A stretch of DNA of 64,000 bases, taken from NCBI GenBank assembly GCA_964600295.1, contig CAZRIY010000002.1, forward strand, positions 26,133 to 90,132, in the 5' to 3' direction. Under the pieces are notes generated by a model. That model was not told the DNA's origin. It did no database searches and worked only from the letters and a program-made list of their open reading frames with translations. The stretch is from an uncultured Candidatus Saccharibacteria bacterium. Its GTDB lineage: Bacteria > Patescibacteriota > Saccharimonadia > CAZHVB01. The position numbers and the translations under genes are program-made. This document shows positions 46,606 through 47,204 of this stretch, piece after piece. How positions within the stretch are numbered: position 1 is the first letter of the stretch; each line of letters starts with the position of its first letter.

Positions 46606-46695
46606 GTCAATGGGAAAATTCACAGTCAATTTTAGCAGTATAGGTTACGGTTATGATCCCAACCCTAAGGTAATAGCAATCGCAAAGGAGAGAAA

Positions 46696-47106
46696 ATGAC
46701 AAGTCCGGATATTCTATCGTCTGATTTACAATCTAACGAAGAGTCACCAGAAGTTAGCATCGTTTATGATATTACCCACGAAGTAGTACGGGAAGCGGGG
46801 GGTATCGAGAACGTAGCCCAGGCGATGGCAAAGAGTTACCTAGAATTGAAGCCGATGCTTGAGACTGAAGAGCGCGATTTTGTAGTCGTACGCGGGGAAG
46901 CGCCTCACGATTACGAGGTTCAAATCGGCCTCGAAAGGATGAAATCGCTCTATGAATTTGAGCAGCTGCTCAATGCAGAAGGCTTTGCAGAGGAGGCGAT
47001 AGAAGAGCGAATCGTAGAATTTATTACGCATGTCTATTTGACGAAATCTGTGATGGAGACTGGCATTAGACAAAGACAACGGGAACTAGACCAGCAAGCA
47101 GTTTAG
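46696..47106 (+). CDS. hypothetical acidic protein (136 aa) inserted between rpsG and fusA
   Basis: AAGGAGAGAAA Shine-Dalgarno before the ATG and clean ORF; lower-GC segment by eye. Confidence 0.5.
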   Translation: MTSPDILSSDLQSNEESPEVSIVYDITHEVVREAGGIENVAQAMAKSYLELKPMLETEERDFVVVRGEAPHDYEVQIGLERMKSLYEFEQLLNAEGFAEEAIEERIVEFITHVYLTKSVMETGIRQRQRELDQQAV

Positions 47107-47125
47107 CAGTTTACACTGCTATTAC

Positions 47126-47153
47126 TTGTGGACAGGGATAAAACTGCTACAAT
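47126..47153 (+). promoter_or_regulatory. sigma70-like promoter immediately upstream of fusA (TTGTGG-N16-TACAAT)
   Basis: Strong -10 hexamer and 16-nt spacer, followed by a weak gcgc hairpin plus a T6 run (47172-47192) before the fusA ATG. Confidence 0.4.
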
Positions 47154-47204
47154 CGAGTAGTTATATTTAGGGGCGCGAGAAGGCGCTTTTTTATTGGTTA
47201 AGAT

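Follow-up and report, generated by a model that had tools for sequence, protein, structure and literature searches.

In the str operon of Escherichia coli, internal secondary promoters for tufA lie within or near fusA. The locus analysed here is the junction of the genes for ribosomal protein S7 (rpsG) and elongation factor EF-G (fusA) in a 64,000-nt stretch of DNA (the window) from an uncultured Candidatus Saccharibacteria bacterium (contig CAZRIY010000002.1 of assembly GCA_964600295.1), at which an open reading frame (ORF) of 136 codons, ORF136, stands between the two genes. As in E. coli, a downstream translation-factor gene appears to have its own promoter beside read-through from rpsL, but the candidate promoter of the window lies in the rpsG-fusA spacer and, judged by its motifs, would combine an extended -10 with a weak -35 element. 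Structured RNAs upstream of fusA are described for other bacteria in one report (PMC2965389), and the window shares with that description a terminator-like hairpin and T-run in the rpsG-fusA spacer, just 5' of fusA. It departs from it in that the hairpin of the window is very short (4 G-C pairs) with no alternative antiterminator conserved, in that the promoter-like site lies only ~15 nt 5' of the hairpin, and in the lack of an Rfam match, the likeness being one of layout, with no similarity of sequence expected.

A further comparison is with the orphan genes (ORFans) of the Patescibacteria, or Candidate Phyla Radiation (CPR). Like these, ORF136 is small, family-less and without a homologue beyond its own genome, is slightly AT-richer than core genes and is co-directional with its neighbours; in contrast to them, it lies within the highly conserved str cluster, straight after rpsG, and has one of the strongest Shine-Dalgarno sites of the window. 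The reading favoured here, at a probability of roughly 0.6, is that ORF136 is a young, lineage-restricted orphan gene carried on a 501-nt insert right after the rpsG stop codon, upstream of an older promoter and leader of fusA.

Arrangement of the rpsG-fusA junction

The S12, S7, EF-G and EF-Tu genes of the str cluster (rpsL-rpsG-fusA-tuf) are in their standard order on one strand of the window, as established from the ORF list, Pfam, and tblastn against at least 80 loci. The run rpoB-rpoC-rpsL-rpsG is tightly packed, with gaps or overlaps of at most 3 nt, and rpsG is its last conserved gene. The gap between rpsG and fusA is 599 nt, in place of the direct adjacency (a spacer below ~200 nt) that defines the cluster, and holds the 136-codon ORF. 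The features of the region, all on the + strand, are as follows.

38352-41876, + strand, rpoB (ORF coordinates)
41876-45712, + strand, rpoC (ORF coordinates)
45716-46129, + strand, rpsL (ORF coordinates)
46129-46605, + strand, rpsG, ribosomal protein S7 (Pfam Ribosomal_S7 PF00177, E 5.6e-53)
46606-47106, + strand, extra segment of 501 nt, a 90-nt leader plus ORF136 (from alignments against the relative L082)
46685-46690, + strand, Shine-Dalgarno AAGGAG, 5 nt 5' of the ORF136 ATG
46696-47106, + strand, ORF136, 136 codons, acidic product, probably a real lineage-specific gene
47104-47121, + strand, hairpin TAGCAG-TTTACA-CTGCTA across the ORF136 stop codon (-8.0 kcal/mol, z = -3.8; listed by the terminator scan)
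47107-47204, + strand, ancestral fusA upstream region of 98 nt, homologous to the rpsG-fusA spacer of L082
47126-47153, + strand, promoter-like site TTGTGG-N16-TACAAT (from the sequence; -35 at 47126-47131, -10 at 47148-47153)
47169-47190, + strand, short hairpin, followed by a T6 run ending at 47192, 12 nt 5' of the fusA ATG
47205-49313, + strand, fusA, EF-G (five EF-G domains by Pfam)

A preliminary description of this DNA had placed an acidic ORF of 136 aa with an AAGGAG site between rpsG and fusA, followed by TTGTGG-N16-TACAAT and by a GCGC hairpin with a T6 run ahead of fusA, and each of these elements was recovered in the sequence at the position given for it. The same rpsL-rpsG-ORF136-fusA arrangement is present, and identical, in an independent Logan assembly, L001 (SRR6868922), so the insertion of ORF136 is not specific to one assembly.

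Close relatives and the limits of the insert

By S7, the nearest sequences to that of the window genome are from Saccharibacteria at 50-60% identity, the best at 60% among the matches listed. Closer relatives were reached through EF-G homologues, the contigs of which were then fetched, and the rpsG-fusA slot of the eight nearest is given below with the EF-G percentage of each.

L082, EF-G 91%: rpsG-fusA spacer of 94 nt, no ORF
L083, EF-G 81%: unrelated 98-aa ORF overlapping the fusA start, no family
L084, EF-G 79%: unrelated 96-aa ORF overlapping the fusA start, no family
L085, L086, L087 and L089, EF-G 77-79%: rpsG and fusA 9-11 nt apart
L090, EF-G 76%: slot of 3.4 kb with six genes

Five of these eight relatives are thus without any slot ORF and three have unrelated content, and ORF136 was not found in L082, L085, L086, L087 or L089. 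Comparison with L082 fixes the limits of the extra DNA: the 98-nt spacer between ORF136 and fusA aligns over its full length with the 94-nt rpsG-fusA spacer of L082 (68/88 positions identical, or 77%; z = 8.5 against shuffles), whereas the 90-nt left flank (46606-46695) is not alignable to that spacer (z = -1.4), and the extra DNA is therefore exactly 46606-47106, from the rpsG stop codon to the ORF136 stop codon. ORF136 is accordingly an extra gene, as had been proposed, being absent from five close relatives including L082 and having no homologue, and it is not conserved at this position across the phylum, since relatives lack it. By sequence comparison, ORF136 is confined to the window's own lineage, the L001 assembly being identical.

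A 9-nt direct repeat, TTTAGCAGT, occurs at 46631 and 47102, near both ends of the extra segment, at the level expected by chance for a 600-nt region. A transposable element (an insertion sequence or a miniature inverted-repeat transposable element) was considered and rejected, as the flanking inverted repeat (46626-46678 versus 47117-47156) is non-significant, with 207 of 2000 shuffles as good; a mobile element is also unsupported in that the direct repeat is within chance, no transposase family was matched in Pfam, and no second copy or source of the segment was found, either elsewhere in the window or among the fetched loci. The 7-mer TAGCAGT/ACTGCTA has four copies within 46633-47149 (517 nt), located near both segment ends, in the hairpin over the ORF136 stop codon and in the -10 region, and 11 copies in the 64-kb window as a whole, for which 5.5 are expected. 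One possibility is that the insertion left this cluster behind as a microhomology footprint.

Searches for relatives of ORF136

In Pfam, the best matches to ORF136 were SrfA (E 0.19) and RraB (E 0.25), neither of which came near the cut-off, and there was no significant match in PHROGs, PADLOC or NCBIfam; among PDB sequences the best was an isolated match to lumazine synthase (E 0.009), from which no family was assigned. A word-indexed search of 5.8 billion clustered proteins returned only ORF136 itself, and scans of metagenome and viral contigs, as well as a tblastn search of phage records, gave no match. A full phmmer search of 1.84 billion representatives returned ORF136 and P0002, a 2252-aa eukaryotic multi-Tudor protein (Tudor / SN-like). 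This candidate was rejected as a relative, its E-value of 1.5e-9 being a sum over six near-identical repeats of 28.9 bits and 33 residues each; 28.9 bits per repeat is meaningless at that database size, and the Pfam TUDOR profile has no match in ORF136.

We infer from these comparisons an insertion, rather than a loss, of ORF136, with the caveat that its polarity, as a gain here and not a loss in L082, is argued from parsimony and from the failure to find homologues. Were ORF136 instead an old gene of the clade, precisely deleted in L082 and the other relatives, this would be in keeping with the frequent gain and loss seen in the slot, and recombination between the two TTTAGCAGT copies could have removed most of the segment. 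Such a history is nevertheless improbable, given that neither the 5.8 billion nor the 1.84 billion protein set nor the metagenome contigs contain a homologue, that five of the eight nearest relatives have no slot ORF and the other three unrelated content, and that both the direct and the inverted repeats are of the quality expected by chance.

Coding potential of ORF136

The predicted ORF136 protein is 136 aa long, with a pI of 4.4 and 29 D+E against 12 K+R residues. When the 599-nt gap was shuffled 5000 times with its dinucleotides preserved, 10 of the shuffles contained an ORF of at least 136 codons (P ~0.002). A Shine-Dalgarno sequence of 6 nt at proper spacing is found at two of the 58 window genes, of which ORF136 is one, compared with a null rate of 0.8% over all window ATGs, in a genome in which use of the Shine-Dalgarno sequence is sparse (34 of the 58 window genes have none). 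Under a codon model trained on 23 long window genes, the log-likelihood of ORF136 was +0.165 bits per codon in frame and at most -0.097 in each of the five others, the in-frame value being comparable to the value for rpsJ (+0.19) and above that for rpsL (+0.08); the codon-usage signal of coding implied by the earlier proposal is thus seen, the ORF136 frame being the best of six. GC content at codon positions 1, 2 and 3 was 0.625, 0.309 and 0.463, with the same GC1 > GC3 > GC2 pattern as in the window genes (0.577, 0.390 and 0.512). Since ORF length, Shine-Dalgarno strength and frame-specific codon usage are all above chance, ORF136 is probably a real translated gene, this being the likelier reading though an uncertain one.

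Three observations weigh against it. Ranked among true in-frame windows, the score of +0.165 falls at the 4th percentile, and among off-frame windows at the 95th, so that as coding evidence it is suggestive rather than decisive. A dN/dS or conservation test of coding is impossible because ORF136 has no homologues. The structural route to an assignment, which had been suggested for the 136-aa protein, was followed with AlphaFold2 and Foldseek but proved uninformative: the single-sequence model was of low confidence and all helical (pLDDT 61, pTM 0.46), and the comparison against the PDB gave no match at E <=0.001, only generic helical matches at E >=1. That a small, acidic, helical product would fit a binding or mimic protein is pure speculation.

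Alternatively, the 501-nt segment might be non-functional inserted or expanded DNA, produced by illegitimate recombination or left by a decayed foreign gene, with ORF136 as a fortuitous frame that yields no useful protein. In favour of this explanation are the lack of a homologue in any search, a codon score in the zone of overlap between coding and off-frame windows, and the low confidence of the structure model; in addition, the slot ORFs of L083 and L084, which are unrelated, family-less and overlap the fusA start, suggest a fast turnover of junk-like sequence. It is considered unlikely, however, because an ORF of such length is seen in only 0.2% of shuffles, the Shine-Dalgarno sequence is among the strongest of the window and ideally spaced, the frame is clearly the best of six with a gene-like distribution of GC by position, and the ORF fills 82% of the extra segment.

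The fusA upstream region

The preliminary description had further proposed that fusA owes a new promoter and attenuator to the insert, which would have carried them in or given rise to them, and this is contradicted by L082, in which the same elements are present at 77% identity in a spacer without the insert. The blocks conserved between the window and L082 are ACTTG..GACAG, AAAACT(G)GCTACAATC, the GCGC/GCGC stem and AGGCGCTTTTTTA; for comparison, identity at third codon positions between the two genomes is 53% in fusA and 34% in rpsG. A TG at 47145-47146, absent from the preliminary description, gives an extended -10 element, TGCTACAAT (47145-47153, TGnTACAAT), with a -10 hexamer near TATAAT and TG one base 5' of it, and the counterpart in L082 is TTGCTG-N17-TACAAT with TGG ahead of the -10. 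The predicted transcription start from this site would be near 47160.

The hairpin at 47169-47190 has a GCGC/GCGC core to which G-U and A-U pairs are added, with 8 pairs (4 G-C), a 6-nt loop and the T6 run according to the terminator scan, so that a G+C-rich stem-loop immediately followed by a U-run, the form of an intrinsic terminator, is present at 47169-47192. Its folding energy is -9.9 kcal/mol (z = -2.2), and that of the L082 counterpart -12.9 kcal/mol (z = -3.1); the stem core and T6 are invariant in L082, whereas the loop varies (GAGAAG versus GGAG). As the promoter-like block, the GCGC stem and T6 are all found in L082, which lacks the insert, these signals are ancestral and predate the insert. 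The idea that the inserted gene carried in, or generated, a promoter and attenuator-like leader that now drive fusA has in its favour that the motifs lie directly 3' of the insert and that the hairpin is listed by the terminator scan, but it is very improbable, both on account of L082 and because the promoter-like site and the hairpin lie beyond the 3' end of the insert, which is the ORF136 stop codon.

Taken by themselves, the motifs of this putative promoter and leader are weaker evidence than the signals of coding. The TTGTGG hexamer matches TTGACA at 3 of 6 positions, short of the threshold of at least 4 of 6 at a spacing of 16-18 nt, and for this reason the promoter scan did not list 47126-47153. 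Neither promoter-like sites (17 found versus 18.4 expected) nor terminator-like sites (24 versus 17.6) are enriched in the surrounding 16-kb region, and TGNTANAAT is not enriched in the window (7 versus 8.7). The promoter-like site is located 5' of the terminator-like hairpin, an awkward order if both are fully active, and this order together with the very short stem argues against a strong terminator. Finally, the leader is known from two sequences, between which the stem core does not vary and therefore provides no covariation support. A transcript from ~47160 would have only ~9 nt ahead of the stem.

Two other pairings were noted in the region. TAGCAGTTT (47104-47112) can pair with AAACTGCTA (47141-47149), a 9-nt perfect complement that overlaps the -10 region, and this pairing is not conserved in L082. 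The hairpin at 47104-47121, over the ORF136 stop codon, has no proper T-run after the stem and is likewise not conserved in L082. A search for GCTACAATC-N20-34-AGGCGCTTTTTTA in metagenome contigs gave L088 as the sole match, which was rejected as a further carrier of the leader, being a chance occurrence within a membrane-protein gene.

The fusA gene has no Shine-Dalgarno sequence and its ATG is preceded by a U-rich stretch, which raises the possibility that the 98-nt region is not a promoter plus terminator but a structured 5' untranslated region or RNA operator acting on fusA translation or stability, such as a ribosomal-protein or EF-G binding site, or a site of U-rich, S1-dependent initiation. 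This would also suit the conservation of the region above the neutral level, the minimum-free-energy folds of both genomes, in which the flanks beside the ATG pair and so lengthen the hairpin, the presence of a different conserved palindrome in the fusA leader of other Saccharibacteria, and the structured RNAs upstream of fusA reported elsewhere (PMC2965389). In opposition, a search of Rfam gave no relevant family (the sole match, at E = 0.4, lies within ORF136), the longer fold does not outperform shuffles in L082 (z = -0.1), and two sequences offer no covariation. An RNA operator is thus possible but doubtful, and it is compatible with, not exclusive of, the favoured explanation of a young gene inserted ahead of an older fusA leader.

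The rpsG-fusA slot across bacteria

The earlier premise that rpsG and fusA are normally adjacent stands for most bacteria and fails for Saccharibacteria-like genomes. Among the matches listed in an S7 scan, from which the counts of this paragraph are taken, 56 non-Patescibacteria loci have rpsG and fusA separated by 6-193 nt, whereas in the 16 Saccharibacteria-like loci with both genes the spacer is 2, 15, 52, 166, 182, 182, 253, 364, 394, 663, 737, 866, 3178, 3730, 4389 and 5624 nt, and three further Saccharibacteria-like loci have no fusA within 2.2-10 kb. The slot is therefore hypervariable in Saccharibacteria-like genomes, from 2 nt to >10 kb (loci L002-L020, L030 and L082-L090). Its occupants are mostly co-directional, family-less small ORFs that are mutually unrelated, together with DUF520/YajQ, NUDIX and other genes. 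In an all-against-all BLAST of slot ORFs none was related to ORF136, and the only family formed was DUF520/YajQ (Pfam E 3.2e-49 for the L014 copy), which occupies the slot in four Saccharibacteria loci:

L009, 13060-13635, DUF520/YajQ gene
L011, 7370-7864, DUF520/YajQ gene
L014, 10593-11087, DUF520/YajQ gene
L030, 10563-11056, DUF520/YajQ gene

The copy in L030 (Candidatus Minimicrobia vallesae) is divided between two ORFs, which probably reflects a frameshift or decay to a pseudogene. DUF520/YajQ and the other slot genes resemble ORF136 in occupying the same slot co-directionally, with fusA then preceded by its own TGnTAnAAT, and differ from it in having no sequence similarity to it.

In seven Saccharibacteria loci in which fusA is split from rpsG (L008, L009, L013, L014, L017, L018 and L030), a TGnTAnAAT motif lies 63-79 nt 5' of fusA, in the form cTGnTAnAAT, and is followed ~12-17 nt on by a conserved palindrome, UUUUUU(G/A)(G/U)GG..CCAAAAA(A). 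This combination is a candidate fusA-specific promoter and leader element of the Saccharibacteria clade with detached fusA, and an autonomous fusA promoter with a structured leader seems to recur in the phylum. A search of the literature on interruption of the str operon in Saccharibacteria found nothing specific.

Other inserts and gene starts in the window

A second ORF without family, ORF156 (49371-49841), is located between fusA and tuf; it encodes 156 aa with a pI of 5.2, has a GC content of 0.42 and a GAGGT Shine-Dalgarno sequence, and gave no match in Pfam, PHROGs, PADLOC or NCBIfam and no tblastn match in close relatives. The L082 sequence 3' of fusA is unrelated to that of the window. 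A promoter-like site with 10 of 12 matching positions, TTTACT-N17-TATAAT (49977-50005), precedes tuf.

Further downstream, rpsJ (51274-51642) and rplC (55809-56441), which are normally adjacent, are split by ~4 kb (51692-55664) containing mostly family-less ORFs of 58, 190, 147, 122 and 581 aa and a 100-aa ORF on the minus strand. Of these, ORF581 alone could be matched to a relative among the close loci (in L085, at 33% identity). ORF122 (53278-53646) has a sub-threshold NCBIfam match to ribosome modulation factor (E 0.008, 16 bits versus a cut-off of 40, over 28 residues) that is probably due to chance. A TTGACA-N17-TAGCAT site with TG, at 55682-55710, lies ahead of rplC.

Several window genes have a TAnAAT-like hexamer ~10-20 nt from the start codon (e.g. 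at 20381, 37552, 52500, 18903 and 35890). Together with the 34 of 58 genes that have no Shine-Dalgarno sequence, these hexamers suggest that mRNAs with short leaders or none may be common in this genome.

Proposed origin and expression of ORF136

On the favoured explanation, the event at this junction is the gain of an ordinary lineage-specific gene, by which, to judge from the sequence, the downstream essential fusA is not rewired. ORF136 would form the new last cistron of the rpoBC-rpsL-rpsG transcript, co-transcription with rpsG being likely because there is no terminator-like site in 46606-46695 and the upstream genes are packed with gaps of at most 3 nt, and it would be translated independently through its strong AAGGAG site. 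The older 98-nt region would give fusA a promoter of the extended -10 kind (TGCTACAAT), weak at -35 and starting at ~47160, by virtue of which fusA may have been a semi-independent transcription unit before the insertion; the tolerance of the slot for insertions probably stems from this independence. Together, the hairpin and U6 would most likely act as a weak or leaky terminator or attenuator damping read-through from the upstream unit, or alternatively as a stabilising, protective or regulatory 5' stem of transcripts from ~47160.

More tentatively, the str-S10 cluster of Saccharibacteria may repeatedly serve new lineage-specific genes as a landing pad or cradle, permitted by a promoter and leader belonging to fusA itself, in which case ORF136 would have been born or captured very recently and would be expressed at ribosomal-protein levels by riding on the rpoBC-rpsLG transcript, possibly serving the episymbiotic lifestyle.

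Taken alone, ORF136 is one more hypothetical gene of the CPR, and its value is modest. L082, without the insert, and the window, with it, nevertheless form a clean before-and-after pair, from which the limits of a very recent gain can be read inside one of the gene clusters most conserved among bacteria, and the rpsG-fusA junction emerges as a hotspot of lineage-specific insertions in Saccharibacteria-like genomes, where fusA appears repeatedly to have its own extended -10 promoter. These observations are relevant to the origin and expression of orphan genes in reduced genomes, and they call for caution wherever collinearity of ribosomal gene blocks is assumed for the CPR.

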